Source of the DNA: a virus
Lineage: Duplodnaviria > Heunggongvirae > Uroviricota > Caudoviricetes
IMG/VR virus record: IMGVR_UViG_2718217869_000004
Strand: one strand, 5' to 3'
DNA length: 43,551 nucleotides
A program made the translations under genes and the position numbers. Shown piece by piece: positions 1 to 32,581 of this stretch (positions are counted from its first letter, which is position 1; every line of letters begins with the position of its first letter). A model generated the notes under the pieces. The model saw only the letters and a program-made list of their open reading frames with translations, did not search any database and was not told the DNA's origin.

Positions 1-459
1 TTACTTACGGCCCGTAAACGGGCTGCCCGGATAGGGAATCGATAACTGCTCTCCCATTTTATCCTCTTCAAGCTGGTGCTTTATGTAGTCCTGTATCTTC
101 GCCGTGTTCTTACCCACCGTATCGACATAGTACCCTCGGCACCAGAACTCCCTGTTTCTGTATTTGAATTTCAAATCCCCAAACTGCTCGTAAAGCATCA
201 GACTGCTTTTCCCTTTCAGATATCCCATAAAGCCGGATACGCTCATTTTGGGTGGGATTTCCACAAGCATATGGATATGATCTGCGCGGCACTCTGCTTC
301 CAGAATCCGTACGCTTTTCCACTCACACAGCTTTCTCAAAATACTGCCTATCGCCCTACGCTTCTCTCCGTAAAACGCCAGTCTTCGGTATTTCGGCGCA
401 AAAACTATGTGATATTTACAGTTCCAGCGGGTGTGCGCTAAGCTCTTTTCGTCCCCCAT
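1..459 (-). CDS. tnpA: IS200 transposase TnpA (HUH/Y1 type, 152 aa)
   Basis: Translation MGDEKSLAHTRWNCKYHIVFAPKYRR... matches IS200 TnpA; start at second Met of the ORF gives 152 aa; stop codon at window positions 1-3. Confidence 0.9.
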   Translation of the reverse strand: MGDEKSLAHTRWNCKYHIVFAPKYRRLAFYGEKRRAIGSILRKLCEWKSVRILEAECRADHIHMLVEIPPKMSVSGFMGYLKGKSSLMLYEQFGDLKFKYRNREFWCRGYYVDTVGKNTAKIQDYIKHQLEEDKMGEQLSIPYPGSPFTGRK

Positions 460-650
460 TGGGACCCCCTTTTGATTTCTTGTTTGACACTTGCAGTTGC
501 CAGACCGCAAGGTGTTTTAACAAATCAAAAGGGGTTTTAATAACTGGCTCAAAGCTGAAAGCTTTCCGGAACCCCCAGCCTAGCTGGGGGTTTTCTGTGC
601 ACAAAAACAACGGGCGTATAACACGCCCGTTTCAATATTTAACACATGTA
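1..650 (-). mobile_element. IS200 (IS200/IS605 family) insertion sequence; right end cut by window edge, left end with subterminal hairpins abutting the icd fragment stop
   Basis: tnpA ORF plus about 190 bp of structured non-coding left end (hairpins cccccagcctagctggggg and aacgggcgtataacacgcccgtt); exact left boundary estimated. Confidence 0.8.
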
Positions 651-653
651 GAG

Positions 654-835
654 ATTACATGTTCTTGATGATCGCATCACCAAACTCTGAACATTTCAGC
701 AGTTTAGCGCCATCCATCAGACGCTCGAAGTCATAGGTTACAGTCTTGGCGTTGATTGCGCCTTCCATACCTTTAACAATCAGGTCTGCGGCTTCAGTCC
801 AGCCCATATGGCGCAGCAGTAGTTAGATGGTTCAT
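654..835 (-). pseudogene. icd: 3' fragment of isocitrate dehydrogenase gene (icdC-like att-site duplication at prophage end)
   Basis: Minus-strand translation ...[54 protein letters not shown] is the Icd C-terminus; similarity stops abruptly near 835. Confidence 0.85.
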
Positions 836-1263
836 ATACAACCGCATGATAAATAAAAATAATCCTATAATTTTATTGTAAATCAACTGGCTTTTATCTT
901 TCCCCTAACCTATTGATTATCAATGTATGTTTTTTGGTTTTGATAACCGTTTTAGAGGGCAAAAACAAGTGCCTGTACCTATCAGCCCCTTCACGGCAAA
1001 GGGATTTTAAATCATGCGTGTTTTCACAAACTATCAATGGCTTAACTAAATTTTTCGCCAATAACGTACGCTGTGAGTGAGAGGTGGATATGAAGTTACA
1101 CACTCCCGGAAAATAAAGAATTGAGCGTTATCTCATGCTATTAATGAAAAGTGTTTGCTTAATAGATTACATATAACTATGATTCAAGCCCAATTAAAGT
1201 CGTGTGTCTTTGGCTTAAATTGGCAAACAAACAATCAAGTCAAGAATATAAAGGAACTATTCA

Positions 1264-2232
1264 ATGAATAAGAATTATAAAACGTTTAAACTTGAACTAT
1301 GGGAGAAGTTTAAGCATCAATGTGCTTACTGTGGCACTAAACTTTATGAACCATTGATGGCGGATGTTGATCGTTTTTTCCCAAAATCAAAGTATACTGA
1401 CTTCCAAGATGCTACAGACAACCTGCTCATCGCTTGTAAGGCATGTAGCATGATTAAAAAAGATCAGTTTCCTCTCGATGAAAATGGCAAACCATTACTT
1501 CTAAATCCTTTAAATGAAAGTTTTTCAGAACATATAAAACAAAATAAAAATGGATATTTAGAAGGTTTAACTGAGCGAGGACATGCGACTATAGATATAT
1601 TACAGTTGAATAGACCTTCATTAATTGAACAGCGCATTCTAGATGTTATTGATATGCAGTACTCTGATGATCGAACGCTATCTGAACGAGATGTCTATAT
1701 GACATTCCAAAATAGTATGCAGAACGCCATAAAACTAAATGATGCTCAGTTAAAAATTGATAGCACTTTACAAATACAAATGTCGTATATGCTATATGCC
1801 AATACAATAACTTCCTTGGAAACATATTTATGTGACAGATTTATTTCCCTAATTCATGGTAGCCAAACTAATTTGAGAAATTTTGTTGAAACCTTCAAAG
1901 ATTACAATACAGAAAAATTCTTACTTTCTGAATTATTTATAAGGCATGAACAAATAGAGTCTCAAGCGATAGAGTCTATGAAGAGTGTTCTTTATCATAA
2001 TCTGCCAAAAGTAAGTGGCATGTATCGAGATACCTTTGGTATTAAATTCCCTGTTTTCACAGAAGTTTATAAAAGCGTGTTAATTAGGCATGACTTAGTT
2101 CATCGAGCAGGTAAAACAAAAAATGGTAATTTTCATAAGTTAGATTCAGAGTCAGTTAAAGATGTTATCAAAAAATGCTGTGACTTGGTTGAACAACTAG
2201 AAAAAGAGCTTAAAGATTGTGCATCATTCTAG
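1264..2232 (+). CDS. HNH-like nuclease-fold protein (322 aa) with degenerate N-terminal HNH motif and unknown C-terminal domain; AT-rich cargo gene
   Basis: CAYCGTKL...VDRFFPKSKY...DNLLIACKACSMIKKD resembles a C-x2-C...(D/E)H..P.S...NL..C..C HNH finger but with Arg in place of the His and no Asn; strong AT bias versus phage core. Confidence 0.75.
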   Translation: MNKNYKTFKLELWEKFKHQCAYCGTKLYEPLMADVDRFFPKSKYTDFQDATDNLLIACKACSMIKKDQFPLDENGKPLLLNPLNESFSEHIKQNKNGYLEGLTERGHATIDILQLNRPSLIEQRILDVIDMQYSDDRTLSERDVYMTFQNSMQNAIKLNDAQLKIDSTLQIQMSYMLYANTITSLETYLCDRFISLIHGSQTNLRNFVETFKDYNTEKFLLSELFIRHEQIESQAIESMKSVLYHNLPKVSGMYRDTFGIKFPVFTEVYKSVLIRHDLVHRAGKTKNGNFHKLDSESVKDVIKKCCDLVEQLEKELKDCASF

Positions 2233-2428
2233 GTAATTGCCACCAAATCGAAGGTGATCGCGCTTGCGGTCACCAAAAGTAATAAACTATTCATTCCCAT
2301 TCGATCATCTGAACCAACACAATTTTATTTAATAAAGTTGACCTACTTCATTATTTGATACCCATCCAATGTGCGCAAGGGCTGCTTCTGGCACATGGTT
2401 ACCCTTGATGAGAAGGTAGATCACCGCC

Positions 2429-2546
2429 ATGGGGTGTCGGGGGCGGAGGTTCAAATCCTCTCGTGCTGACCAAAAATCCTCGAAGAACCAGCCTGTTACG
2501 GCTGGTTTTTTTTGCCTGTTTTCTGAACGGGGAAGCAATGGGGAAA
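2429..2546 (+). repeat. Direct repeat copy 1: tRNA-Pro-like 3' fragment (T-arm GGTTCAAATCC, acceptor 3' strand, CCA) plus downstream hairpin/T-run
   Basis: atggggtgtcgggggcggaggttcaaatcctctcgtgctgacca followed by ccagcc-tgttac-ggctgg-ttttttt; near-identical copy at 3600-3716; no 5' tRNA half upstream. Confidence 0.75.
2486..2513 (+). terminator. Rho-independent terminator-like hairpin inside direct repeat copy 1
   Basis: aaccagcc tgttac ggctggtt followed by a T8 run. Confidence 0.55.
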
Positions 2547-2735
2547 TTAGCTTACGGTTGACCCCACTGCGAAAAGCGCAGATTTTTATCAATGGACGTA
2601 CATAGGGTAGATAAGGCACAATACTGCTTCAATGTCGTCTGATGGTATTGTAATACTAATTACATCAGATGATTTAACTAGATTAGTTCTTTATAGAAAT
2701 CATTCTTGAATATTAATTGGCTGACTGAGGTTTTT

Positions 2736-3521
2736 ATGGATGAAAAATACAGAAGATTTGTTGATGAGGTTGACTTTTCAAGACAATTATTAGGCATAGG
2801 GCTCACTTCCCTAAGGAAAGCAAATTTTGCAAGTAGAGGATTGTATTTTCAAGCATTATCCGGCATCAGTTTAGGATTAGAAAGGCTTATGAAACTTTGC
2901 CTTATGCTTGATGATTATAATAAAAATGGAAAATATACATCACGCAAAAAATTAAGAGATTACGGTCATAACTTAAGCAAGTTATTCAACCTAGTCATTG
3001 AGAGAGTTGATTCTCCCTCTGGCTTAAATGAAATTCACTACAGAGTGATGGAGTTGTTAACTAATTTTGCAAATTCATCAAGATATAGTAATATTGATTT
3101 CATTACTAATGACAACGACAATGATCCCATGAAGCAATGGTATAATGAAATCGATAAGAGCATTTACGATGAAATATTAACAAAAAGACAAAAAAATATA
3201 ATTGATAAAAAATGCGAGCAATACCGAAGCTATGGTGAAACACTGCCATGCTATGTGCTTGGATATTATGATGAAGACAGAAACCATATAAACTCTGCAG
3301 GGGATTTAAATTATTTACTTAAAAGAAGTGAAATGCTTGCTGGTTATCGCACTTTATTAGTTATTCATATCATAGAATGCATCTATAACATATTAGACTC
3401 AATGACAGTTCAAGCAAAAGATAATCACTTCCACCATCTTGAATTAGGTCGTTTTTTTGCAACCATCATTTATGGCTCTGATAGAGACAAAATCAATAGA
3501 AAAAATTTTATCCGTATGTGA
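2736..3521 (+). CDS. Hypothetical protein (about 261 aa), AT-rich, unrecognised family; candidate accessory/defence gene
   Basis: Long ORF with GAGG RBS 6 nt upstream of ATG at 2736; sits exactly between the two tRNA-fragment direct repeats. Confidence 0.7.
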   Translation: MDEKYRRFVDEVDFSRQLLGIGLTSLRKANFASRGLYFQALSGISLGLERLMKLCLMLDDYNKNGKYTSRKKLRDYGHNLSKLFNLVIERVDSPSGLNEIHYRVMELLTNFANSSRYSNIDFITNDNDNDPMKQWYNEIDKSIYDEILTKRQKNIIDKKCEQYRSYGETLPCYVLGYYDEDRNHINSAGDLNYLLKRSEMLAGYRTLLVIHIIECIYNILDSMTVQAKDNHFHHLELGRFFATIIYGSDRDKINRKNFIRM

Positions 3522-3599
3522 GACTACGAAGCGACCGACGAATGATGCTATCAACTTACTGTAGACGCATATAGGCCATCAGAATATTAGCACGACACT

Positions 3600-3716
3600 A
3601 TGGGGTGTCGGGGGGCGGAGGTTCAAATCCTCTCGTGCCGACCAAAAATCCTCGAAGAACCAGCCTGTTACGGCTGGTTTTTTTGCCTGTTTTCTGAACG
3701 GGGAAGCAATGGGGAA
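3600..3716 (+). repeat. Direct repeat copy 2: tRNA-Pro-like 3' fragment plus terminator hairpin
   Basis: atggggtgtcggggggcggaggttcaaatcctctcgtgccgacca...ccagcctgttacggctggttttttt; differs from copy 1 by a few indels/substitutions. Confidence 0.75.
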
Positions 3717-4111
3717 TTACAGGGGAAAAACCCCGTCAAATGTTGCCCCCGTATCGCTAGCACACAATGATTAAGTATCTTTTTCACTTTCGGAATTCAT
3801 CAATTCACAAAACCATCATTCCGATTTACCTTACATGCTCCTTTTAAATCTTTAACGGTGTGCACCACTTTTTCTAACTGCCCTATACTTTCAGTCTGAC
3901 ATACGGCTGGAGGTTTCTATGTGTGGACGCTTTTCACAGTCAATGACCCGTGAAGATTATCTTGCCCTTCTCGCTGATGAATCAGAACGCGATATTCCAT
4001 ACGATCCAGAACCCATCGGAAGATTCAACGTAGCGCCAGGAACAAAAGTTCTGCTTCTGAGCGAACGTGATGAGCAGTTGCATCTTGATCCAGTTATCTG
4101 GGGATACGCCC

Positions 4112-5450
4112 CATAAGCGCTAACTTAAGGGTTGTGGTATTACGCCTGATATGATTTAACGTGCCGATGAATTACTCTCACGATAACTGGTCAGCAATTC
4201 TGGCCCATATTGGTAAGCCCGAAGAACTGGATACTTCGGCACGTAATGCCGGGGCTCTAACCCGCCGCCGCGAAATTCGTGATGCTGCAACTCTGCTACG
4301 TCTGGGGCTGGCTTACGGCCCCGGGGGGATGTCATTACGTGAAGTCACTGCATGGGCTCAGCTCCATGACGTTGCAACATTATCTGACGTGGCTCTCCTG
4401 AAGCGGCTGCGGAATGCCGCCGACTGGTTTGGCATACTTGCCGCACAAACACTTGCTGTACGCGCCGCAGTTACGGGTTGTACAAGCGGAAAGAGATTGC
4501 GTCTTGTCGATGGAACAGCAATCAGTGCGCCCGGGGGCGGCAGCGCTGAATGGCGACTACATATGGGATATGATCCTCATACCTGTCAGTTCACTGATTT
4601 TGAGCTAACCGACAGCAGAGACGCTGAACGGCTGGACCGATTTGCGCAAACGGCAGACGAGATACGCATTGCTGACCGGGGATTCGGTTCGCGTCCCGAA
4701 TGTATCCGCTCACTTGCTTTTGGAGAAGCTGATTATATCGTCCGGGTTCACTGGCGAGGATTGCGCTGGTTAACTGCAGAAGGAATGCGCTTTGACATGA
4801 TGGGTTTTCTGCGCGGGCTGGATTGCGGTAAGAACGGTGAAACCACTGTAATGATAGGCAATTCAGGTAATAAAAAAGCCGGAGCTCCCTTTCCGGCACG
4901 TCTCATTGCCGTATCACTTCCTCCCGAAAAAGCATTAATCAGTAAAACCCGACTGCTCAGCGAGAATCGTCGAAAAGGACGAGTAGTTCAGGCGGAAACG
5001 CTGGAAGCAGCGGGCCATGTGCTATTGCTAACATCATTACCGGAAGATGAATATTCAGCAGAGCAAGTGGCTGATTGTTACCGTCTGCGATGGCAAATTG
5101 AACTGGCTTTTAAGCGGCTCAAAAGTTTGCTGCACCTGGATGCTTTGCGTGCAAAGGAACCTGAACTCGCGAAAGCGTGGATATTTGCTAATCTACTCGC
5201 CGCATTTTTAATTGACGACATAATCCAGCCATCGCTGGATTTCCCCCCCAGAAGTGCCGGATCCGAAAAGAAGAACTAACTCGTTGTGGAGAATAACAAA
5301 AATGGTCATCTGGAGCTTACAGGTGGCCATTCGTGGGACAGTATCCCTGACAGCCTACAAAACGCAATTGAAGAACGCGAGGCATCGTCTTAACGAGGCA
5401 CCGAGGCGTCGCATTCTTCAGATGGTTCAACCCTTAAGTTAGCGCTTATG
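4112..5450 (+). mobile_element. IS186 (IS4 family), 1339 bp, with 23-bp terminal inverted repeats and 10-bp target duplication
   Basis: Ends CATAAGCGCTAACTTAAGGGTTG ... CAACCCTTAAGTTAGCGCTTATG; flanking direct repeat GGATACGCCC at 4102-4111 and 5451-5460. Confidence 0.9.
4167..5279 (+). CDS. IS186 transposase (370 aa)
   Basis: Translation MNYSHDNWSAILAHIGKPEELDTSARNAGAL... matches the IS186 transposase; lies between the IRs. Confidence 0.9.
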   Translation: MNYSHDNWSAILAHIGKPEELDTSARNAGALTRRREIRDAATLLRLGLAYGPGGMSLREVTAWAQLHDVATLSDVALLKRLRNAADWFGILAAQTLAVRAAVTGCTSGKRLRLVDGTAISAPGGGSAEWRLHMGYDPHTCQFTDFELTDSRDAERLDRFAQTADEIRIADRGFGSRPECIRSLAFGEADYIVRVHWRGLRWLTAEGMRFDMMGFLRGLDCGKNGETTVMIGNSGNKKAGAPFPARLIAVSLPPEKALISKTRLLSENRRKGRVVQAETLEAAGHVLLLTSLPEDEYSAEQVADCYRLRWQIELAFKRLKSLLHLDALRAKEPELAKAWIFANLLAAFLIDDIIQPSLDFPPRSAGSEKKN

Positions 5451-5936
5451 GGATACGCCCCCGGTTGGTGGGATAAACCGCCGCTCATTAATGCACGGTC
5501 TGAAACTGCTGCCACCAGCAGAATGTTTAAACCACTCTGGCAGCATGGCCGCGCAATTTGCTTTGCTGATGGATGGTATGAGTGGAAAAAGGAAGGCGAC
5601 CAAAAACAACCCTACTTTATTCACCGGGCAGACGGTCAGCCGATTTTTATGGCGGCGATCGGCAGCACACCATTCGAACGTGGAGATGAAGCAGAAGGTT
5701 TCCTGATAGTTACAGCTGCAGCTGACAAAGGACTGGTTGATATTCACGACAGACGACCACTGGTACTGCTACCGGAAGCCGCGCGTGAATGGATGAGGCA
5801 GGATGTTGGAGGGAAAGAAGCAGCGGAAATTGCAGCCGACGGTGTTGTACCGGCTGATAAATTTATATGGCACGCCGTAACGCGTGCCGTCGGGAATGTG
5901 AAAAATCAGGGCGCCGAACTAATAACGCCAATATGA

Positions 5937-6358
<422 letters not shown>

Positions 6359-6360
6359 GG

Positions 6361-6603
6361 CTAAAGTCCTCCGTTTGGATTGAACAGCTGAAAGGTTCGG
6401 TTCTCGCCTTCCTGCGTTGATACATCGCGGAATGTTGTCACATAACATTCTATCCAATCGTTGGCCTGCTTCATCGTCCAGTGCCAGTTAACCTTACCCA
6501 GTTCCTGGACAAACCGCTGTGTGGTGACAGTCTTCCGGCCATTCGGTTCTCGCTGTATCGAAGCATGCCAGGCTATTTCAATATCGCTACGTTGTGGCAT
6601 CAT
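6361..6603 (-). CDS. Hypothetical small protein (about 80 aa) immediately upstream of and translationally coupled to the UmuD-like gene; possibly ImpC-like
   Basis: ORF MMPQRSDIEIAWHASIQREPNGRK...; its stop is 2 nt from the UmuD-like ATG; LexA box 40 bp upstream; start codon choice uncertain. Confidence 0.5.
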   Translation of the reverse strand: MMPQRSDIEIAWHASIQREPNGRKTVTTQRFVQELGKVNWHWTMKQANDWIECYVTTFRDVSTQEGENRTFQLFNPNGGL

Positions 6604-6642
6604 TAACCCCTTCTTGAACACTGGATAAAAAAACAGCATAAG

Positions 6643-6662
6643 CACTGTGTATCCATCCAGTA
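6643..6662. promoter_or_regulatory. LexA (SOS) box between divergent dinI-like and small-ORF/umuD-like units
   Basis: cACTGTgtatccatcCAGTa fits CTG-N10-CAG consensus TACTGT(AT)4ACAGTA; 16 bp upstream of the dinI-like start. Confidence 0.65.
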
Positions 6663-6677
6663 AAGAGGCAATAAGCA

Positions 6678-6920
6678 ATGTTCGTGGAACTCGTTTATGA
6701 CAAAAGGAATTTTGATGGCCTGCCCGGTGCAAAAGATATCATTCTGGGCGAATTGACTAAGAGGGTTCACCGGGTCTTCCCTGATGCTGATGTCCGGGTA
6801 AAACCGATGATGACACTGCCGGCGATCAACACTGACGCCAGCAAGCATGAGAAGGAACAGATAAGCCGTACTGTTCAGGAAATGTTTGAAAAGGCTGATA
6901 TGTGGCTGGTTTCAGATTAA
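6678..6920 (+). CDS. dinI: DinI family protein (DNA damage-inducible protein I homologue, 80 aa)
   Basis: Size and C-terminal ...QISRTVQEMFEKADMWLVSD resemble DinI (...QRISEILQETWESADDWFVSE); AGAGG RBS; LexA box upstream. Confidence 0.8.
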   Translation: MFVELVYDKRNFDGLPGAKDIILGELTKRVHRVFPDADVRVKPMMTLPAINTDASKHEKEQISRTVQEMFEKADMWLVSD

Positions 6921-7048
6921 ACGCCTTGAACCGTCATATTGCTTAAGTACAATCCGCCGTGACTGGCAATCATTCAATACTCGCACTATCGAACGTTCGC
7001 CAGTTCGTCGCCGCCCGTTCTTGCATACGACGACGCGGTGGCGTTTTC

Positions 7049-7600
7049 TCAACGCCGCGCAGGAAATTTTTTGTATAGCGTCGACACCCCTACATCATAA
7101 ATTATAGCCACACGTTTTCTAGACTCACCTGCAGCAATCAACCTTCCAGCCTGAGCCCACTCTTCTGCGGTTAACTTTGGTCGTCTGCCGCCGATCCGAC
7201 CATCTTCGCGCGCAGCAGCTAAGCCAGCCCGTGTTCGCTTAACAATAAGCTCTCTTTCCATCTCGGCAAGCGCCCCCATGACATGAAAGAAAAAGCGCCC
7301 CATTGGTGTTGAGGTATCTATACTGTCGGTCAGGCTACGGAAGTTTACCCCTCGCTCCCTCATTTCTTCGACCAGCACGACAAGATGCCGCATGCTGCGA
7401 CCGAGGCGATCCAGCTTCCAGACAACCAGAGTGTCACCTTCCGATAATGTCCTGAGCAGTTTTTTCAATCCCGGCCTTTCGGACTTTGTACCGCTTATCT
7501 TGTCTTCAAAAATCAGCTCGCATCCTGCACAGTTCAGCGCATTACGTTGTAGATCTGTGTTCTGGTCATTTGTTGACACACGTACATAGCCAATAAGCAT
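7049..7600 (-). CDS. pin: Pin/Gin-family DNA invertase (serine recombinase)
   Basis: MLIGYVRVSTNDQNTDLQRNAL...VVWKLDRLGRSM...HTH tail; typical resolvase/invertase motifs; next to the invertible tail-fibre segment. Confidence 0.9.
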   Translation of the reverse strand: MLIGYVRVSTNDQNTDLQRNALNCAGCELIFEDKISGTKSERPGLKKLLRTLSEGDTLVVWKLDRLGRSMRHLVVLVEEMRERGVNFRSLTDSIDTSTPMGRFFFHVMGALAEMERELIVKRTRAGLAAAREDGRIGGRRPKLTAEEWAQAGRLIAAGESRKRVAIIYDVGVSTLYKKFPARR

Positions 7601-7654
7601 GGTAGATCTCCCTGACAAAAGCAGGGATGATGCCATTTGCTCGTTATTTCTGCA

Positions 7655-7680
7655 TTTTCATAAATGTTGGTTTGGGAGAA
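7655..7680. other. Inversion crossover site 1 (gix/pix-like 26-bp site)
   Basis: TTTTCATAAATGTTGGTTTGGGAGAA; reverse complement shares half-site TCTCCCAAACC-AA with site 2 and resembles gix TTATCCAAAACC. Confidence 0.65.
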
Positions 7681-8169
7681 GGCTCTGCATTACCTGTTGG
7701 TGTCCCTGTTCCGTGGCCCTCAGCCACTCCGCCAACAGGCTGGCTAAAATGCAACGGAGCAGCTTTTTCTGCTGAAGAATATCCGGAACTGGCAAAGGCT
7801 TACCCGACAAATAAATTGCCTGATTTACGCGGTGAATTTATCCGTGGCTGGGATGACGGGCGTGGTATTGATGCTGTACGTGCCTTGCTAAGTCTTCAGA
7901 ATGGAGGAGTGGAATCACACACCCACCAAGGGCAGCTCTTCAGAGTTAGTGATTATCGTACAAAAGAAATACCAGCATCAGAAGTTATGGGAAGAGGATA
8001 TATTGCAAGCCTGACGCCGGGTGCTGATAGCCCACTTGATTTTGATGATTATTCTGTATCTTCTAATCCAAATGGATATTTTGTCGGGAATCAGAGAACA
8101 ACAGCATATGGGATAAATGAAACCCGTCCACGGAATATTGCATTTAACTATATCGTGAGGGCTGCATAA
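7669..8169 (+). CDS. Alternative tail-fibre C-terminal variable segment (silent in current orientation)
   Basis: ORF ...GAAFSAEEYPELAKAYPTNKLPDLRGEFIRGWDDGRGID... typical fibre tip; frame at the crossover site matches the constant fibre N-terminus after inversion. Confidence 0.7.
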   Translation, partial: GLGEGSALPVGVPVPWPSATPPTGWLKCNGAAFSAEEYPELAKAYPTNKLPDLRGEFIRGWDDGRGIDAVRALLSLQNGGVESHTHQGQLFRVSDYRTKEIPASEVMGRGYIASLTPGADSPLDFDDYSVSSNPNGYFVGNQRTTAYGINETRPRNIAFNYIVRAA

Positions 8170-8771
8170 TGGATAATGCTGTATTAAATAGCGAGTTTAT
8201 TGCTACAAAGGCGGGGAATATTACCGTCTATAACTATGATGGCGAAACACGGGAATATATTTCCACATCAACTGAATATCTTGCCGTTGGTGTCGGTATC
8301 CCTGCATATTCCTGTTTAGATGCCCCTGGCACATACAAAGCTGGTTATGCAATCTGCCGATCTGTAGATTTTAACTCATGGGAATATGTGCCAGACCATC
8401 GCGGTGAAATCGTCTTTAGCACCGAAACAGGAGAATCAAAAGAAATCACAGCTCCGGGTGATTACCCTGATAATACAACCACTATCGCCCCGTTAACGCC
8501 ATACGATAAATGGGATGGTGAGAAATGGGTGACGGATACCGAAGCACAGCATAGCGCCGCAGTAGATGCAGCAGAAGCACAGCGCCAGTCACTGATTGAT
8601 ACTGCAATGGCTTCAATCAGTCTGATTCAGCTGAAATTGCAGGCCGGACGTAAACTGACGCAGGCAGAAACAACCAGCCTTAACGCTGTGCTGGATTACA
8701 TTGACGCGGTGACGGCAACAGATACCAGCACCGCGCCGGATGTCATCTGGCCTGAACTGCCGGAGGCGTAG
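8169..8771 (+). CDS. tfa: Tail fibre assembly protein (Tfa, alternative cassette)
   Basis: MDNAVLNSEFIATKAGNITVYNYDGETREY... Tfa-like; conserved C-terminal ...DAVTATDTSTAPDVIWPELPEA shared with the other Tfa. Confidence 0.8.
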   Translation: MDNAVLNSEFIATKAGNITVYNYDGETREYISTSTEYLAVGVGIPAYSCLDAPGTYKAGYAICRSVDFNSWEYVPDHRGEIVFSTETGESKEITAPGDYPDNTTTIAPLTPYDKWDGEKWVTDTEAQHSAAVDAAEAQRQSLIDTAMASISLIQLKLQAGRKLTQAETTSLNAVLDYIDAVTATDTSTAPDVIWPELPEA

Positions 8772-19236: not shown

Positions 19237-19797
19237 TCAGGAAGGAAGGGTTATTTCGGTGTGATGTTCGATATCGCCGTCAGGCCCGTTACCGGGCTCG
19301 AGATAATCAACATCAATCGCCAGCGTTTGCAGTTCATCCAGACTGTTCAGATCATCCTGCTGGCGGGTATCGTCTTCGGTCAGCTCGCTGATGATCGAAA
19401 AATCGAACTGATAAATCAGCTCATGACGATTCAGATCCAGCAGCGTGCCGCCGTCATAGGTAATCGGGTTACCGCACGCTTCCGGGTTCCAGCCCAGCAG
19501 AGCCTTAAAGAGCATCTGCCGGACATCGTCCACCACATCATACGAGGCAAACTGACCGCGCTCATCACGCCCGTTACTCAGTATGACAACCACGGAGAAG
19601 CCCTCTTTCAGCTCCTGCCAGTAGTCGGTCTGGCTTTTGTTTTCTCCCGGAGAGTCATCACCCGGTACCACATACGCCGCCGGGAGTCTCAGCTTTCCGA
19701 CCTCCGGCAGATTTTTGAACTGTGCCGCGCCTGCCACCCGGTTTTCAAAATACGGGCAGCGGGCACGCAGCGCAGCAATAACAGGCGTCAGTTTCAT
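19237..19797 (-). CDS. Mu gp37-like virion/tail protein
   Basis: 186-aa ORF upstream of the sheath; synteny with Mu-like tail modules. Confidence 0.65.
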   Translation of the reverse strand: MKLTPVIAALRARCPYFENRVAGAAQFKNLPEVGKLRLPAAYVVPGDDSPGENKSQTDYWQELKEGFSVVVILSNGRDERGQFASYDVVDDVRQMLFKALLGWNPEACGNPITYDGGTLLDLNRHELIYQFDFSIISELTEDDTRQQDDLNSLDELQTLAIDVDYLEPGNGPDGDIEHHTEITLPS

Positions 19798-20300
19798 CTG
19801 CGTCGTCGCTCCGGCTTCAGTGATTTACGTAATTCCCGCGCCAGAAAATAGCGTGTCCAGCTGCGGTTCTTTTCAAGAGTTTCCACCATAAAGTTATTAC
19901 GTGGAGCCAGCCGCCAGCCGCTGCCACCGGATGCACCACGATGATGACTACGACGACGTTTTGCTCCTCCCCGGACACCAAAAAACAGAAACGCCGGATA
20001 GAAGTCACCAGAGATCATCCGGTTCCCCTTCCCGTTGCGCTGGTTAGGGGCAATGCGTGTCATAAAACCGGCTCGCTTTTTACTGGCTCCCGGCACCATG
20101 TAACCAATCGAACGAGCCAGGCGTCCGGTCTGATAACCGGGGTTTTCACCCGGTGCCGACCGCGCACGGCGCATCACCAGCCGACGAGCATCACGCATAT
20201 GACGCTGCCCAATCGTGACAAACGCCCGCCGGACACGGGCGCGGTTAAAGCGCATCTCCGCGGGCTGCTGAACATCAACGTGAAAAAAGGGAGTCGCCAT
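19794..20300 (-). CDS. HK97 gp10-like tail-completion / virion morphogenesis protein
   Basis: ORF starting MATPFFHVDVQQ... (internal Met of the 191-aa ORF); position after the head-tail adaptor. Confidence 0.6.
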   Translation of the reverse strand: MATPFFHVDVQQPAEMRFNRARVRRAFVTIGQRHMRDARRLVMRRARSAPGENPGYQTGRLARSIGYMVPGASKKRAGFMTRIAPNQRNGKGNRMISGDFYPAFLFFGVRGGAKRRRSHHRGASGGSGWRLAPRNNFMVETLEKNRSWTRYFLARELRKSLKPERRRR

Positions 20301-20685
20301 TGCTGCCTCCGTGACTCTGCGTAAATTCGCCCAGCTCCGTACACTCCAGCAGCAGAAAGCGCCGCGCACCGTTCAGATCGCGCTGACGTTTCACCCGGTA
20401 CACACTGTCACCGCAGACCACCTCATAATCAGCGGTGATCCCCCGGCGGTAGCGAATGGTGATGTAATGGGTGATGGCGTCTCCGGTCTGCGCGGTTTCC
20501 TGCCAGGTGGTGGCACTGGTCTGGACAACCTTCGCCCATGCCCGGAACGCAACCGGGTATTGAGGCTCCACGCCAAAGTTATCCGCGGGCATATCCACCC
20601 GCTGGCGGATCAGGACGCGTTTATTCAGTTCGCCGGGGTCCGGCAGAATGTAGGTTGCGCTGGTCTGCGCCTGACGAATTTTCAT
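20275..20685 (-). CDS. Head-tail adaptor / head closure protein
   Basis: 136-aa ORF in the head-tail joining block. Confidence 0.65.
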   Translation of the reverse strand: MKIRQAQTSATYILPDPGELNKRVLIRQRVDMPADNFGVEPQYPVAFRAWAKVVQTSATTWQETAQTGDAITHYITIRYRRGITADYEVVCGDSVYRVKRQRDLNGARRFLLLECTELGEFTQSHGGSNGDSLFSR

Positions 20686-21005
20686 TGCGGAAAGTACCTG
20701 TACGGGCCAACAAGCCAGCCAAAACTCTGCGGCATGTCGAGTTTCTCCACTTCCGTAACCGACGAGCGGTTTTCGTAAAAATGGCTGATAAGCATCAGCA
20801 TCCCCAGACGAATATCATCCGGCAGGTGTAGTCCGTCCGGGTCGCTGTCCGGAATGGTTTCATCCGGTGCATAGAGCTTCCGGTTCAGATACGTTTCCGT
20901 CCGCTTTTGCGCCGCACAGGCCAGCAGTTGCAGATGGCGGTCATCAGCATCGAAATCCTCATCCAGCCGGAGTTGGGCTTTAATCTCTTCCATTGTCAGA
21001 AGCAT
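20682..21005 (-). CDS. Head-tail connector protein (gp6-like)
   Basis: 107-aa ORF MLLTMEEIKAQLRLDEDFDADDRHLQLL...; position after the capsid gene. Confidence 0.65.
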   Translation of the reverse strand: MLLTMEEIKAQLRLDEDFDADDRHLQLLACAAQKRTETYLNRKLYAPDETIPDSDPDGLHLPDDIRLGMLMLISHFYENRSSVTEVEKLDMPQSFGWLVGPYRYFPQ

Positions 21006-21007
21006 AC

Positions 21008-21208
21008 TCAGCCCTCTTTACTGGTCGTGGCTTTTTTCTCTTTTGTCGCTTTACTGCTTTTTGCACTGGTTCCGCGCTCTGCTAACCCGGCCTGAAGTGC
21101 AATCTCCTGCACCCGGGCAGGAAGCGCCCCGTCGTCATACTCACCGGCCCGAATGACCTCAACACGCATACCGTCCGGTGACCATTTCAGATCTTGTTTC
21201 AGGATCAT
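21008..21208 (-). CDS. Small hypothetical phage protein (66 aa) with Lys-rich tail
   Basis: ORF between capsid and connector genes. Confidence 0.45.
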   Translation of the reverse strand: MILKQDLKWSPDGMRVEVIRAGEYDDGALPARVQEIALQAGLAERGTSAKSSKATKEKKATTSKEG

Positions 21209-21256
21209 GATTCTTCACCCTTCAGAACAGGGGCGCGGTTCAGCGCCCCTGAGTGA

Positions 21257-22462
21257 TTACGCCGCTGCAATCTTCAGCAGTTTGATGGCCTGCGAATCGA
21301 CCAGCATCCCGCCGGTGCGCTTGGTGGTATAAAAACCGACAAACGGTTTATTGGTGTACGGGTCGCGCAGAATGCGGGTGCCGATACGGTCAACGATGGT
21401 GTAACCCCGTTTGAAGTTACCAAATGCAATGGCTTTCGCATCAGCGGCGATATCCGGCATCTGTTCGTTTTCAGCGATACCGTAACCCGCCAGAGAGGAC
21501 GGCTGCCCCAGTTCCAGCCCCGGACGCCACAGATAGTTACCCTCGGTGTCTTTCAGCAAACGGATGGCAAACAGGCTGTTGTTGTTCATCATGAACTTCG
21601 CGCCGGTGCGGTGTGCCTTTCGCAGCGTGTAAATCAGTTTGATAATGGCGTCTGCGGTCACCCCCGTCGCTTCGCCGGATACAATATGCTGAAGTTTGCC
21701 GAACGCCCGGACCTTATCGGTTTCATCGGTGGATTCATACGCCAGGAACCCTTTCGGCTTCTTGGTACCATCGCCTGAGGTAAAGGCAATTTCTTCCTGT
21801 TCGGCAAATTCGGTTGCCAGCTCGCTGTTGATCCAGGCCTCCACGTTGAAGAAGGCATCGTCCAGCATTTTCTGGGTAGCCTGCGGGTTGCCGTAGATTT
21901 CCCCCATGAGAGGTTCAATCAGCTCCAGTCTGGAGGTGGCAGTCTGGGATCGCGTATCCGTTTCCCCCACCCATCCGGAAGCCGTACCGCCCAGATTCAC
22001 CAGTTTTTTGTAGTCGGAACCGCCAACGGTGATCACCGTGGCTTCCTGACGCATCACCACTTCATCTTTCAGCAGGTTAAGAATGTTGCGATCCAGTTCT
22101 TCCGGCACGGCGTAGCCACCGTCTTCATCGGTGCCCACCTGCAATGCCTTACGCTCCAGATCGCGCAGACCGTCTTCACGGCCTTTACGCAGGAAGCCCA
22201 CAAACGCCTCTTTATGCTCGGTGGCCAGTTTATTTTGCGCTCCACCTGCCGGACGTTTCAGCTCAAGCAGCTCTTTTTCAAGATCGCTTTTGAGGTTTTC
22301 CAGCTCGCTGAGTTTCCCGTTCAGGGTTTCCACCTGCCCGGCAAGTTTGCCTTTTTCCTGCTCAATCGCATCCACGCGCTTGTCGTTCTTTGCTTTGAAG
22401 TCGTCAAACTTCTGCTGCAGCTCCTGCGCGACCTGTTCGACATCTTTAATATCAACCGCCAT
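21257..22462 (-). CDS. Major capsid protein (HK97 fold) with N-terminal coiled-coil scaffolding (delta) domain
   Basis: 401 aa; N-terminal heptad-rich region then a capsid-like body; follows the prohead protease. Confidence 0.9.
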   Translation of the reverse strand: MAVDIKDVEQVAQELQQKFDDFKAKNDKRVDAIEQEKGKLAGQVETLNGKLSELENLKSDLEKELLELKRPAGGAQNKLATEHKEAFVGFLRKGREDGLRDLERKALQVGTDEDGGYAVPEELDRNILNLLKDEVVMRQEATVITVGGSDYKKLVNLGGTASGWVGETDTRSQTATSRLELIEPLMGEIYGNPQATQKMLDDAFFNVEAWINSELATEFAEQEEIAFTSGDGTKKPKGFLAYESTDETDKVRAFGKLQHIVSGEATGVTADAIIKLIYTLRKAHRTGAKFMMNNNSLFAIRLLKDTEGNYLWRPGLELGQPSSLAGYGIAENEQMPDIAADAKAIAFGNFKRGYTIVDRIGTRILRDPYTNKPFVGFYTTKRTGGMLVDSQAIKLLKIAAA

Positions 22463-22476
22463 CGTATTTCTCCTGA

Positions 22477-23127
22477 TTAGAAGTTCAGATTTTTCAGTGC
22501 ATTCAGTGCAGAGCCCACATCCTCAGCGTCGCGCAGGGACAGTGCGCCATAGCCCCCGGCCATGAATGCTTTGGCCTGGGTACGGGAGAGTCCGACATCA
22601 CGCAGGACTCTTTCGATTTTTTTCTGTTCGGGGATTTCCCCGCGGGCCAGTGCGTTCTTGACGTCGCTGATCCGCGCCTCGTCGTTAGACGGGAACGTCA
22701 CCAGGCTGACTTCCCAGAGGTCGATTTCTTTCAGCAGAAAGGCTTCTTTGCTCCGGTCGTATTCCCAGTCTTTCAGGACGTACCCAATAGAAAGGCCGGT
22801 TAACGAACCGGCCTTCATGTGTGCATGTGCGCGTTTTGCGAGGGGATCATCATCAATAAGCAACCGTCCCCTGACGTAAAGCCCGACATCGTCTTCCTTC
22901 ATTTCGGTGTAAACACCGATGGGTTCATCCATGCGGTGCTGCCAGAGCAGCGCAGGTAACGCTTTTCTGTCACTCCACGCCCGCAGGGAAGCAGCAAATG
23001 CCCCGGACATCACCACATCATCGTGGCTGTCCTTTACACCAAAGACGGAGCCATACCCTTCAAACTCACCGGAGTCACTGACAGATTTCAGACTCAGCGG
23101 TACATCAAGACGTTGTTTCGTCTGCAT
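22477..23127 (-). CDS. Prohead protease (HK97 family)
   Basis: Start chosen at internal Met with AAGGA RBS; located between portal and capsid genes. Confidence 0.8.
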   Translation of the reverse strand: MQTKQRLDVPLSLKSVSDSGEFEGYGSVFGVKDSHDDVVMSGAFAASLRAWSDRKALPALLWQHRMDEPIGVYTEMKEDDVGLYVRGRLLIDDDPLAKRAHAHMKAGSLTGLSIGYVLKDWEYDRSKEAFLLKEIDLWEVSLVTFPSNDEARISDVKNALARGEIPEQKKIERVLRDVGLSRTQAKAFMAGGYGALSLRDAEDVGSALNALKNLNF

Positions 23128-24346
23128 TGGCGTTATCCTTCTGCTTACCGGCTTTACTGCCATCGGAGGGTTTCGTGGTCATGTTCATCGGTGTGAGATA
23201 GACATCACCACCGGGACGCGGATTCATATCTTCCAGGTCGCGGCAGTCATTGGGAGAGTAAATTCCCCAGTTGATCCCGGTGGCGTAGGCTTCAAAACGG
23301 GACTTCATATCCCCGCGCAGTAACGCCCCGGCGTTAAATTTGGCGTAATAAACGCCCTGCTTACTTTTTCGTACCAGTCCGGTGTTGATCCGCTGTTCGA
23401 TGCGGGTCAGATACGGCACCAGTGAATAGTTGATAAATCCGAGCCCCAGTTCTTCGATATTGTTGAAGGTGGCGCGATCGGTGTTCTGCACCATGTGCAA
23501 CGGTACCCGGAACAGACGACAGATTTCTTCAAGCTGAAACTTGCGGGTTTCCAGGAACTGGCTGTCCTCGGCGTTCAGCGCCATCGACTTCCAGTCCAGC
23601 CCCATCTCAAGGATCATCGGGCGGTGAGCATTGCCAAGCCCGGTGTGACGCTCCTCAAAATCTTTCTTCAGGCGCTCATAAGCCTGATCTGACAGCGTCT
23701 GCTCTGTACGCAACACACCCGACGTCACCGCACCATTGCTGAACAGTCTGGCCCCGTGCTCTTCAGTCGCTGCCGCCAGCGATATTGCCTCGCGGGCATA
23801 GGCGATGGGATTCAGCCCCACCAGTCCGTCCAGCGTCAGCGTGCGCACATGCCAGATATCCTCCTGGCTCAGCACATCCGTGGAGCCGTCCGGGAATGTG
23901 ACCTGATAGACCGGCTCCCAGCTACTGTTAAGCTTCGGTACCACACAGCCGGGATCGACGGGCAGCAGTTCAGCCACTTCGCCAAATGCTTTCACTTTGT
24001 AGGCGTAAAAGTTTCCCCTCAGGCACAGACAGGTGACCACCAGCTCCCAGAACTCCTGCGGCGTCATATAGCCATTGGGATGCGTGGAGATCAGCTTATG
24101 CAGACGTTCGCCGGTGGCTCTCTGCTTCAGGCTGCCGTTCAGGTGATACAGATTGCAGGGCAACATCCCGACCGACTCTGCCAGCACTCTGACGCAGGAA
24201 AAAACCGCCGTCAGTCGCATGGCCCGCTGACTGCTGATCTGCTTTCCGGTATAGGTGTCGTAGGACAACCCGATGGCATCCGCCAGCTCTGCTGGCGTGG
24301 TCACCGGTGCGTCACTTTTTCGTTGAAATAATCCCGAAAAGAACAC
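23105..24346 (-). CDS. Portal protein (HK97 family)
   Basis: 413-aa ORF following the terminase large subunit. Confidence 0.9.
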   Translation of the reverse strand: MFFSGLFQRKSDAPVTTPAELADAIGLSYDTYTGKQISSQRAMRLTAVFSCVRVLAESVGMLPCNLYHLNGSLKQRATGERLHKLISTHPNGYMTPQEFWELVVTCLCLRGNFYAYKVKAFGEVAELLPVDPGCVVPKLNSSWEPVYQVTFPDGSTDVLSQEDIWHVRTLTLDGLVGLNPIAYAREAISLAAATEEHGARLFSNGAVTSGVLRTEQTLSDQAYERLKKDFEERHTGLGNAHRPMILEMGLDWKSMALNAEDSQFLETRKFQLEEICRLFRVPLHMVQNTDRATFNNIEELGLGFINYSLVPYLTRIEQRINTGLVRKSKQGVYYAKFNAGALLRGDMKSRFEAYATGINWGIYSPNDCRDLEDMNPRPGGDVYLTPMNMTTKPSDGSKAGKQKDNANADETTS

Positions 24347-24528
24347 TATTTACCTCCGCCGACAGACGGCTGTGTACGGTCGAGATATCGCGCCACCAGC
24401 CACGACCAGAACAGGCACAACGCCCCGGCAACAACAAACCCCGCCGGGGGATAAATCAGCCAGGCACCATACGCCAGCAAAAGCGCCCCCAGCACGCCCA
24501 CCAGAGGCGCGAGAATCAGCATGATCAT
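24346..24528 (-). CDS. Small hydrophobic protein (60 aa)
   Basis: ORF with two predicted transmembrane stretches between terL and portal. Confidence 0.4.
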
Positions 24529-24539
24529 AATTACCTCAG

Positions 24540-26273
24540 TTAAAGCGAGCGGATCCCATAGGACTCAATGTGGTCAGACAGCGTGTCTTCTTTCTCGTAC
24601 AGCATGGCTCTGCCAACCGCCATAATCAGCGCAACTGCACCATCGATTTTGTTTTCCGCCTGCTCTTTGACGGGCTTCACCACATCATCGTTACCCGGAA
24701 TGGTTTTGCCGACCACGTTGCCAATACACCAGGTCATGATGGGATTGCCATCATGATGAAAGCGCCCCGATTCAATTGCCGCTTCCAGCTCTTTCATCGG
24801 GTCGGACGTGTTGGTGTAGTTCTGAATGATAGTGATGGGGTTCAGGTCTTCATCAGCAAGGTCATGTGACAACCCGGTCGCCCCGAAGGGGTCGATGGGT
24901 GACTCACTGACCGGACTGATTTTGTTCGCCGCTTTGGCCTCCTCGAGGATGTAGCGATAATCCACCTCCGCACCATCGGTAACGGTCAGAACGCCCATTT
25001 CCACCCATTTCTGAAAGCGTTCGGCTGTCCGGCGATCTTCATTTTTCTCGACGCTGTACACCGTGTCATACGGTACCCAGAAACGCGGGGCCACACTGTA
25101 GTAATGCGTTTTACCGTCAATCTCGCGGGTATAAAGTCGCGCCATGCTGTTCATATCCAGCTTACGCGCCAGGTCAAAGGCCAGAATGCACGGCTGCCCC
25201 TCGAACTGCTCAAGAGTCAGTGATTTATCCTCGCAGCTCTGCCAGCTCACCAGGTTGAAATACGCCGAACGCGCCGACACCCAGATATTGAGGTGTTTTG
25301 TTTTAAAGACGTTTGCCAGACGGGCGTTATTTTTCGCACGCTGCTGCTGACTTAACAAAAATTCGCGATAAACCGACACGCCAATATTCGGGTTAGCTTT
25401 TTCCAGCACCTGCGGGTCGGTCCAGTCATCGCCTTCGTCAACGGTATAGATGATCCCGAACAGTTCATCGTTAGGCACCGAGCCATTGAGCATCTCGATG
25501 ACTTCCCGCCGCTTGTCGTAGCACGGCCCCTCAATGTTGTACCCGGCGGTGGTGATAGCCCACATCAGTGGCTGACGTCGCGCCCCCATCCCGGTAAGCA
25601 TCGTGGTGTAAAGCGCATCGGTGGCGTGCTCGTGATATTCATCCACCACCGCACAGTGGGGTGATGAACCATCACCGGGGTTACCGATCAGCGGTTCAAA
25701 CCGCGCGCCATCCTCCGGACGATTCATGTTTGAGGCGTTAACCTCAATCCCGAACGCTTCCGTCAGCATGGGTGTGCGTTTACACATCAGTCGCGCCGGG
25801 CGAAAGACTTCCCACGCCTGTTTCTCTGTCGTGGCACCGGAATACACTTCCGCGCCAAACTCGTTATCACAGGCAAAACAATACAGGGCAACACCGGCAG
25901 AGATTGCCGATTTGCCGTTCTTACGGGGGATTTCGGTATACACCTCCCGGAAGCGGCGCAGCCGGGACCCTTTATTGACCCAGCCAAACGCACAGCAGAC
26001 CACAAATAGCTGCCACGGCTCCAGCGTGATGGGCATCCTCTTGAATGCCCACTCACCCTTGGTGTGCGGCAACAGCTGAATAAATTTGGCGGCCCGTTCA
26101 GCCAGGTCCTTGTCGAAGCGGTAACGAAACGACTTACTTTTTTCCGCCATCAGGTCATCAAGATGGCGCTGGCAGGCCTGAATCACAAACTGGCAGGCCA
26201 CAATCTTTCCGCGCACAACATCACGGGCATACTGATTGGCAGCATTTACGTTGGGGTAAGATTTCCGGCTCAT
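24540..26273 (-). CDS. Terminase large subunit
   Basis: 577-aa ORF with ATPase and nuclease halves typical of TerL. Confidence 0.9.
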
Positions 26274-26773
26274 GACTCGATGATTTTCAGAAACGGGTTA
26301 GTGGCTTTCTTCTGCCCCGCCAGGCCAATCAGACGCTGGCGGCTGCTGGGGTCGAGTCCGAGCATTGCCCCCGTGCTGCTCATCTCGGACTCCTGTTCTT
26401 TTTTGGCGGTCAGCTCCGGATTTTTGACCCTGCCGCCCATTGCACCGGTGATGGTGTTGCCCTGTATGGCAATATTTTTCACGGCACGTCGCCAGAACTC
26501 GTAGGCCACGCACCACCGCTCAAGCACCGCGAGGTCAGTCACGCACAGCAGGCCCTGACCGCAGAGTTCTTTGGTTGTCAGTTGCCACATGATCGTGGCG
26601 AGAGGGAGATCTTCTTCAGCGAACCACTCCGGTGGCTCAACACCTTTGATGGGCGTAAAAACAGGTTCATCTTTATTCAGGGCTCGCTTGCCGGGGTTTC
26701 CGGCCAGCGCCTTGCGCGCCGTTGGCTTGGGGCGACGCCCGGAACGCCCCGCCGTTCCAGCCATATGCGGCAC
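26270..26773 (-). CDS. Terminase small subunit (P27-type)
   Basis: 167-aa ORF immediately upstream of terL, overlapping by 4 nt. Confidence 0.8.
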
Positions 26774-26889
26774 TCCTGGTTAAATTTCATTTTTCGCGGG
26801 TATAAAAAAACGATGGGGCGGGCAGTCCGGAAGACGTCAGGTCACAGGGATTTGACCCGCCCCTCCCCTCTGGCAGTGGGAACTGGTTC
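26774..26889. other. Candidate cos / packaging-site region between HNH endonuclease and terS
   Basis: Non-coding gap with GC-rich inverted repeat GGGGCGGG...CCCGCCCC; HNH-cos-terS arrangement as in HK97-like phages. Confidence 0.4.
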
Positions 26890-27240
26890 TTACTTCAGCC
26901 GTTCACGGGCCGTCTTCGCCTTATGACACGGCCAGCACAAACTCTGCAGATTACTGTCGACATCAGTGCCGCCATGCGATTTAGGGTTGATGTGGTCAAC
27001 GGTCTTCGCCTCACGCACCACACCAGCACGCAGACATAACTGACACAGGCCTTTGTCACGCTTGAGCACACGTTCACGGATAACATCCCATTTCGAACCA
27101 TAACCGCGCTGGTGTCGGGACTGGCCCGGCTTGTATTGTTTCCAGCCTTCGCTTTTGTGGCTTTCGCAATAGCCTGACGGGTCAGTCGTGGTATGGCGGC
27201 AGCCGCGAACACGGCAGGCTTTTGGGATTCGTGATGGCAT
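26890..27240 (-). CDS. Phage HNH endonuclease (terminase-associated)
   Basis: CRVRGCRHTT...CESH...DHINPKSHGGTDVDSNLQSLCWPCHKAKT is a canonical HNH/zinc finger; start at MPSRIPKACRVRGC. Confidence 0.85.
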   Translation of the reverse strand: MPSRIPKACRVRGCRHTTTDPSGYCESHKSEGWKQYKPGQSRHQRGYGSKWDVIRERVLKRDKGLCQLCLRAGVVREAKTVDHINPKSHGGTDVDSNLQSLCWPCHKAKTARERLK

Positions 27241-27765
27241 ATGTACTCCAATGAAGAAGCCACCGACATAGCCTCCTCCATTCATCGTGAAACTATTTTC
27301 ATCTACGCAGTCATGAATTCTTTGTAGAGTTGTGATCAATACAACTCACTAATGGAGAGGCTTGTCCAACACGTTGGACAAGTTTCCTGTTTGATTTACT
27401 GGACACTATAGAAGGACAGAATGCCTTCCTCACTCGAATAACATCAATTAAGGAGGTTCAACATGTTTCATTCCACAAATCATCAGGCTGTAATTATGGC
27501 TGCATCAGTTTGTGCCACAGACCTTTTCCGCTTCACTTTGAGCCTGATTCATTTCTACCTGACCGGCTCGCCTCTATCTTTTTAATCCCCGCTTTATCCA
27601 AATTGCATTGCCAGAATGCCGACAACAGACCGACATTCAAATCCTGACTACCTCCAATAGTCTGACCGTACACCTATATAGTTTTAATTTTCATCAATCC
27701 ATTTAACTATCGTTTAATTGTTGTCACATAGGATTCTGCCGTTTTTAACAATGCAGGATAATAAG

Positions 27766-28059: not shown

Positions 28060-28090
28060 TTGCATGAGTTGCCCATCGATATGGGCAGCT

Positions 28091-29025: not shown

Positions 29026-29028
29026 AAA

Positions 29029-29364: not shown

Positions 29365-29410
29365 TTGTAGTTATCTCTCACCTGCGATTATTTGCGGGTG
29401 CTGTGTTGGA

Positions 29411-29436
29411 AATAAAAAGGCCACCCGAAGGCAGCC
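29411..29436 (-). terminator. Rho-independent terminator after the ATPase moron
   Basis: Minus strand GGCTGCC-TTCG-GGTGGCC hairpin followed by TTTTTATTT. Confidence 0.6.
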
Positions 29437-32580: not shown

Positions 32581-32581
32581 C

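Follow-up and report, generated by a model that had tools for sequence, protein, structure and literature searches.

The left end of the window, by which we mean the whole 43,551-nt stretch of DNA analysed here, joins an insertion sequence to a fragment of the isocitrate dehydrogenase gene (icd) and to a large prophage, which raises the question of why an IS200 copy lies at exactly this point and what its arrival did to the flank. Our answer, held with a probability of roughly 90%, is that an intact-looking IS200, oriented like icd, was inserted exactly where the T-tract of the icd terminator ends, and that positions 1-603 hold its left 603 bp. That figure refers to the reading as a whole: the identity of the element, the terminator site, the independence of the insertion from the prophage, and a GC-rich hairpin followed by oligo-T as the usual target of IS200.

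Identity and left end of the element

IS200 is the smallest autonomous bacterial insertion sequence and belongs to the single-strand 'peel-and-paste' type with Y1/HUH transposases. In the window, tnpA runs from an ATG at 459-457 to a stop codon that occupies the very first three bases. The match of the 152-aa ORF to the Pfam profile Y1_Tnp ('Transposase IS200 like'; E 7.9e-37, 126.5 bits, cutoff 23) covers positions 2-121 of a profile 121 positions long. Its relatives in the PDB are the TnpA proteins of IS608 and ISDra2 (2a6m, IS608 TnpA, at 2.6e-19; 2vhg at about 3e-19), and both the HUH motif 'HIH' and the tyrosine of 'GYY' are visible in the translation. The single ORF of the element is a Y1/HUH transposase of the class of about 150 aa, as is characteristic of the IS200/IS605 family. 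RefSeq labels the same sequence IS200/IS605-family tnpA, and a megablast search of 5426 complete E. coli genomes finds it adjoining icd in many of them. The element is an ordinary, already known one, and the initial annotation was right to place an IS200 here, as the Y1_Tnp profile, the Rfam family STnc490 and the RefSeq annotation all indicate. The features of the locus are collected in table 1.

Table 1. Positions of the annotated features, in window coordinates
Feature	Position	Strand	Basis
IS200 tnpA, complete 152-aa Y1 (HUH) transposase ORF	1..459	-	ORF list, Pfam, PDB relatives, motifs
IS200 left end (IS nt 1-144), tnpA 5′UTR and antisense art200 region	460..603	-	Rfam, published coordinates, empty-site comparison
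5′UTR stem-loop (IS nt 69-138), sequesters the tnpA Shine-Dalgarno	466..535	-	inverted repeat, fold, literature
Left-end hairpin (IS nt 12-34)	570..592	-	10-bp perfect inverted repeat, also in predicted RNA fold
Junction: icd terminator T-tract (A-run on + strand) abutting IS200 'GTGCAC'	603..607	-	
Native icd intrinsic terminator hairpin (predicted), outside IS200	609..631	-	terminator scan; kept in IS-free strains
icd 3′ fragment, 54 codons and stop (655-657), displaced icdC-like remnant	655..819	-	Pfam Iso_dh C-terminus, alignment
Prophage DNA: e14-like junction, PtuB-like HNH nuclease, SRAP, DinI, Pin, myovirus-type structural genes	820..43551	.	

Upstream of tnpA, STnc490, the Rfam family of IS200 left-end RNAs, matches 469-592 with 146 bits (E 4.9e-31, gathering score 56); the match is to the tnpA-sense strand, although art200 is antisense. 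The RNA fold of the 206-nt region (z = -5.5) recovers both left-end hairpins, the long stem, with its inverted repeat arms at 466-481 and 519-534, appearing in the MFE as well as in the centroid structure. The IS200 coordinates published for the terminator hairpin (nt 12-34) and for the second inverted repeat (nt 69-138; PMC4513863) map to window 592-570 and 535-466, respectively. Since they fall onto the inverted repeats found there, IS200 nt 1 corresponds to window 603. When a 171-nt query across the junction is used, the match to IS-free icd flanks starts at 603/604, and that to IS200 copies elsewhere ceases at 607-617. The copies at cof (CFT073), at galU (on a plasmid) and in the ymgK-ymgL spacer have in common the sequence up to 'GTGCAC' (window 597-602) and the A-run, and diverge beyond it. 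Three lines of evidence drawn from sequence comparison thus agree on a terminus at 603 ± 2 nt, the margin of about 2 nt being due to an A/T run that is common to the element and its target.

The left-end hairpin has been described as a bidirectional Rho-independent terminator that halts about 85% of impinging transcripts, and TnpA synthesis is held very low by the combined action of the 5′UTR stem, Hfq and the antisense RNA art200 (PMC4513863, PMC5435999). The two ends of IS200 are unlike each other, the left one reading GTGCAC... and the right one, as read in homologous loci, ...GGATATTTATTT.

Between the element and the icd stop codon lie 51 nt (604-654) of native icd 3′ flank. The terminator scan reports a match at 631-609, whose 10-bp stem contains 6 GC pairs and precedes GTTTTTG on the icd strand. 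Both the hairpin at 609-631 and its flank are kept in the icdC-iraM spacer of K-12 and in fEC.1, neither of which carries the IS, and the hairpin is therefore native rather than borne by IS200. Accordingly placed outside the element, it is a predicted intrinsic (Rho-independent) terminator of icd, consisting of a GC hairpin and a T-tract and conserved irrespective of the IS. The initial annotation had set IS200 immediately beside the icd stop, with the left-end hairpins ending within a few bp of it; in fact the element ends 51 nt off and a complete native terminator segment intervenes. Of the hairpins then given to IS200, the one at 570-592 and the 466-535 stem do belong to it, and the one nearest the stop, at 609-631, belongs to icd. 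The stop codon, formerly put at 654-656, also shifts by one position.

Terminator T-tracts as the probable target of IS200

To see how far this position is typical of IS200, the sites of other copies have to be considered. A left-end scan of GTDB species representatives yielded 69 loci across many Enterobacterales. Next to the left end there is, at almost all distinct sites, an A-run and then a GC-rich hairpin, so that the IS strand reads hairpin, T-tract, IS. A GC hairpin lies 0-7 nt from the IS end in 61 of the 64 distinct left-end flanks (about 95%), compared with 9.4% of A5 sites in the same loci and 4.3% of random positions, the hairpin control pooling intergenic and coding A5/T5 runs. 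The flank profile, built from 73 sites, has T at positions -1 and -2 throughout (73/73) and at positions -4 to -6 in 64-72 of the 73; positions -8 to -14 are GC-rich. In ten of ten contexts of the exact window TnpA, the IS is preceded, at a distance of 36-56 nt, by the end of a co-oriented gene. The Kluyvera copy (L069), an independent IS200, also follows an icd terminator. Both register and orientation are fixed at the sampled sites (L006-L074, L082-L091). The icd position is explained because the usual target of IS200 is a GC-rich hairpin and then oligo-T, on the IS top strand. We infer from these patterns that terminators are the preferred target of IS200, possibly as mimics of its right end. 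Some general interest attaches only to this wider pattern, in which left ends abut terminator T-tracts at about 95% of the sites sampled.

How such a preference could arise is a matter on which we are more tentative. IS200 could be a terminator-homing element, to which we give somewhat less than an even chance: its Y1 transposase would integrate at the T-tract end of host terminators that are exposed as single-stranded DNA and mimic the element's own right end. The structure recognised would be a terminator-like one resembling that end, namely a hairpin and ATATTTATTT. If true, homing of this kind would explain the icd site, the paralogous site at ymgL, the tandem copies and the fact that IS200 is almost always both silent and harmless. 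In the tandem copies (ES1, L002 4880-4900; 22AR0747, L080) the left end directly follows the neighbour's right end, ...GGATATTTATTT, and this register is consistent with a right-end hairpin and T-rich end serving as target mimic.

The post-terminator position could also result from a preference for T-runs combined with purifying selection, the observed copies being harmless intergenic survivors and no hairpin being recognised. We regard this as unlikely, though it is the strongest of the alternatives. In its favour, T is all but invariant at positions -1, -2 and -4 to -6, and the known IS200/IS605 relatives IS608 and ISDra2 choose short sequence targets. Terminator-like sequences upstream of IS200/IS605 elements have moreover been reported before, and the association was read as a niche limiting transposase expression (PMC13548323). 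On the other hand, hairpins accompany only 9.4% of the A5/T5 runs in the same loci against 95% of the IS200 sites, register and orientation are fixed, and in tandem pairs the insertion point lies behind the right end of another copy, which bears a hairpin. As a statistical association with terminator-like sequences the pattern is in the literature (PMC13548323), and novelty would be limited to the exact register and the mechanism of structural mimicry; the papers searched give neither an exact IS200 target nor a terminator register.

Two further sets of sites deserve mention. First, IS200 'insertions in icdA' are reported to have arisen twice independently in Salmonella Typhimurium, including strain 14028S (PMC3853940); these may represent the same terminator or prophage-fragment situation and not gene disruption. 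Second, the ymgK-ymgL spacer of K-12 contains a 43-nt paralogue of the icd terminator, 84% identical to it (L003 1950-2000 versus 1085-1130; L001 5020-5070), and some strains carry IS200 at both terminator copies in the same register. At the icd terminator itself, two IS200 sequence types that are 96.4% identical occupy the identical site in different strains (window 1-603 against L001 6001-6603 and L002), and both are present in tandem in ES1, which implies either independent insertions at a hotspot or the resolution of a tandem pair.

Insertion between icd and iraM

The window begins inside IS200, at the tnpA stop, and the right end and left flank of this copy lie beyond it; the type of insertion was therefore read from relatives. 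The closest complete genome is Ecol_545, in which the flank 604-819 is identical at 216 of 216 positions and the prophage side (query 1-18255) at 99.6%. Its gene order is bluF-bluR-ycgX-ymgL-[IS200]-ymgK-iraM-[IS200]-terminator-icd fragment-HNH gene, which is the K-12 order (iraM-ymgK-ymgL-ycgX-bluR-bluF) plus two IS200 copies. The right end of the icd-proximal copy has '...tccacataaaaaaa' on its left, and then iraM follows. The strains fEC.1 and GF161 share the prophage end and the HNH protein and have no IS200; in them the icd fragment lies 102 nt from iraM. A 600-nt query made of the joined flanks spans 1312 nt in H109, corresponding to a 712-bp insert with one IS between the flanks. At the ymgL site, the occupied sequence and the empty one of K-12 reconstruct exactly, giving a 712-bp insert and no duplication. 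Among homologous loci the length of IS200 is about 707-712 bp, with a right end of about 105-110 bp that reads ...tatcctccggcatagccggaggtttttcaaatgcgcc...gttac on the + strand and whose hairpin CCTCCGGCATAGCCGGAGG lies at L001 5901-5919. As far as these comparisons go, the closest genome has simply gained about 712 bp of IS200 between the icd terminator and iraM, and nothing was replaced.

At the icd site the comparison is less sharp. The IS-free site in K-12 and fEC.1 is TTTTATTT, which is reconstructed imperfectly from the occupied site (TTTTT...TTTTTTT), the T/A runs leaving 3-4 nt of ambiguity between occupied and empty sequences. In IS sense, the empty site (K-12, L003 1118-1135; fEC.1, L075 at about 1470-1485) reads GTTG-T-TTTATTT-ATGT and holds the terminal heptamer of the IS200 right end, TTTATTT, exactly at the position of the IS in other strains. 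It may be a footprint of IS200 excision or a coincidence.

The initial annotation had proposed that IS200 abuts the icd stop, replaced whatever native sequence lay downstream and marks a rearranged flank. This is now very improbable. The window does show nothing to the left of tnpA, and among relatives there are some with tandem IS200 copies and some, such as LH85-a, that lack iraM-ymgK beside the IS. The left end is joined to the icd flank in 215 of the 5426 complete E. coli genomes (about 4%), and only 101 of the 215 have iraM retained directly beside the IS right end. However, the stop codon and the IS are separated by 51 nt of native sequence that contain the icd terminator, and the flanks of Ecol_545 and ES1 are collinear with K-12. 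In Ecol_545 the element is inserted cleanly between sequences that are contiguous in fEC.1, GF161 and K-12, and in these strains without IS200 the icd terminator passes directly into the iraM spacer. Absence of iraM-ymgK, finally, is also seen in many IS-free genomes and need not stem from the IS.

A simple insertion thus remains the preferred reading, and the variation of the flank can be described in its own right. The genomes without iraM beside the IS number at most 114 (215 minus 101). A count of 158 obtained with a 1601-nt ymgL-IS200-icd query is irreconcilable with that difference and can be taken as an upper bound only; it probably also takes in genomes with the IS at the ymgL site only, since BLAST pieces are joined. 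LH85-a has the arrangement ymgL-IS200-icd, with iraM-ymgK absent according to the annotation and a flank that reads '...catatttataaataaa' before ymgL, and ten single-piece full-length matches share it. The ymgL flank is joined to the icd terminator in 1133 of the 5426 complete genomes, the sampled ones being single-piece and without an annotated IS. The iraM-ymgK block between the two terminator copies measures 866 bp and is absent from about 1133 of the 5426 genomes; judged from these alignments, it is an old indel bounded by terminator repeats. Because many genomes lack both the block and the IS, the absence of iraM beside the IS need not be the work of IS200. For the same reason, that absence cannot simply be put down to recombination between two IS200 copies. 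Direct IS200 repeats around iraM-ymgK could nevertheless mediate loss of iraM, the gene of an RpoS anti-adaptor, in some strains.

The number of copies varies as well. Three copies are present in ES1 (ST38), a tandem pair behind icd, in which the right end of the icd-adjacent copy has '...gtgcacaaataaa', the second copy, on its left, and one near ymgL; 22AR0747 (L080) has a tandem pair and lacks iraM-ymgK. The copy in the window is identical at 600 of 603 positions (99.5%) to the icd-adjacent copy of ES1 and at 581 of 603 (96.4%) to the IS200C-type copy of Ecol_545. Because its type differs from that of Ecol_545, the source genome may carry an ES1-like tandem or another arrangement, and to the left of the window it may resemble ES1.

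For the function of the locus the consequences appear to be small. The icd gene is undisturbed and its terminator intact. With its position behind the icd terminator and terminator-like hairpins at both of its own ends, the insertion is expected to be silent with regard to the transcription of icd and iraM.

Relation to the prophage

The region 655-819 encodes the last residues of isocitrate dehydrogenase and has the same length, 165 nt, as icdC of K-12; its homologue is annotated in RefSeq as a partial dehydrogenase. Compared with the intact icd and flank of ES1, window 604-819 is identical at 215 of 216 positions, and the alignment ends at 818/819. From 819 on, the window shares 'tagttagatg' with the e14 junction of K-12. 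The locus has the properties of a displaced fragment of the icdC type, namely about 165 nt nearly identical to the icd 3′ end, an att junction and a retained native flank. An icdC-like remnant at the prophage end had been recognised before, and it holds good, icd homology ceasing at 818/819 and phage structural genes (tape measure, sheath, portal, capsid) lying beyond. The 165-nt remnant was displaced by the integration of an e14-like prophage into the icd 3′ end; the working icd copy in lysogens is at the other prophage end. Neither a second copy of the icd fragment nor a second IS200 was found in the window, and because the fragment has no second copy there, the other att site lies outside it. 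ARAGORN found no tRNA in the whole window.

Two observations concern the icd sequences carried by prophages. The phage-borne icd 3′ end beside the integrase gene also carries the icd terminator (A1_181, L077; O157:H7, L078), the copy of A1_181 being 100% identical to window 604-690. In some genomes the integrase of a second, lambdoid prophage adjoins a 50-aa icd fragment beside the HNH end (L092-L094, 4136-5544), which indicates tandem prophages at icd.

Did the element come with the prophage? In 207 of the 215 genomes with the icd-IS200 junction, icd is contiguous across the att position, and in about eight (H1-H6, H9, H11) the IS is found together with an icd fragment. It follows from the uninterrupted icd of the 207 genomes that IS200 was inserted independently of the prophage. 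The IS is, as far as genome comparison can tell, a chromosomal lineage marker of the icd-iraM spacer that is independent of lysogeny, and the junction can be used as such a marker. Its insertion into the spacer would be older than, or independent of, the integration of a prophage that later entered 215 bp away. The opposite idea, in which IS200 arrived with or because of the prophage, either as phage-borne DNA or by insertion at the new junction after lysogeny, is highly improbable. It can draw on the distance of just 215 bp between the IS and the att junction and on the eight complete genomes in which IS and icd fragment are combined. Against it, icd is intact and no prophage is present there in the 207 genomes, the same prophage end is found without the IS in fEC.1 and GF161, and the IS lies on the chromosomal side of the junction. 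Moreover, IS200-flanked icd fragments adjoin differing prophage ends: of two fragment-bearing genomes read on the prophage side, 22AR0747 has mcrA/pinE and Ecol_545 has the HNH gene as in the window. Conversely, IS200 is present in only one of ten representative contexts of the HNH gene of this prophage end.

The annotation is to be corrected to a clean prophage/chromosome boundary and a hairpin at 609-631 that is the terminator of icd. That the whole stretch 460-650 with its hairpins is native icd terminator sequence and no IS200 is present, an outcome that had been named beforehand and that is right for the 609-631 hairpin and the flank 604-654, has practically no chance of being right for 460-603, which matches STnc490 at 469-592, recurs beside the same tnpA at cof, galU and other unrelated places, and is missing from the IS-free icd flanks of K-12 and fEC.1.

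Comparison with known elements

The closest counterpart of the element is the IS200 of Salmonella and E. coli (IS200C in RefSeq), which has the same 152-aa Y1 transposase, the hairpins at nt 12-34 and 69-138 and the STnc490/art200 region. The homologous copies also have a right-end hairpin and a length of about 707-712 bp and, as far as their differing ends show, no terminal inverted repeats. Nothing essential differs, and the window copy is a sequence variant that is 96.4% identical to IS200C. IS608 of Helicobacter pylori and ISDra2 of Deinococcus radiodurans, whose TnpA proteins are homologous, have subterminal hairpins at both ends and insert 3′ of a short target, which then adjoins the left end and is not duplicated. 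Their targets are a tetra- and a pentanucleotide (TTAC, TTGAT), and they carry tnpB. IS200 differs from them in the absence of tnpB and in sites that consist of oligo-T directly after a GC hairpin.

The possible homing to terminators has parallels among unrelated elements. Class C bacterial group II introns home to extragenic stem-loops and intrinsic terminators, which are 'safe' sites. ISPpu9 is a REP-targeting insertion sequence that is reported to insert in REPs (PMC8450116). The homing of both is similar to that considered for IS200, but the chemistry is unrelated (retrohoming in the one case, other transposases in the other), making this an analogy and not a shared membership.

At the prophage boundary, the right junction of e14 in K-12 has the same 165-nt icd remnant, stop and terminator and the same 'tagttagatg', with iraM as neighbour in the relatives of the window. 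K-12 differs in that its icdC-iraM spacer, of 102 nt, lacks IS200. The prophage itself differs from e14, being large and of the myovirus type, with a PtuB-like HNH gene in the position of mcrA.

Accessory genes next to the boundary

The HNH gene (1264-2232, + strand) encodes a 322-aa nuclease that has no Pfam match and that PADLOC matches as PtuB-like (1e-23), along with matches of type IV restriction-like character; it stands alone at the place where e14 carries mcrA. Further inward, two direct repeats of about 107 nt (2439-2545 and 3611-3716) are 99-100% identical. Each resembles a tRNA 3′ end (GGTTCAAATCC...GACCA) followed by a hairpin/T7 terminator, and no whole tRNA was found there. The repeats bracket a 271-aa ORF (2706-3521) without a Pfam or PADLOC match, and the whole arrangement may be a small cassette inserted in the accessory region of the prophage.
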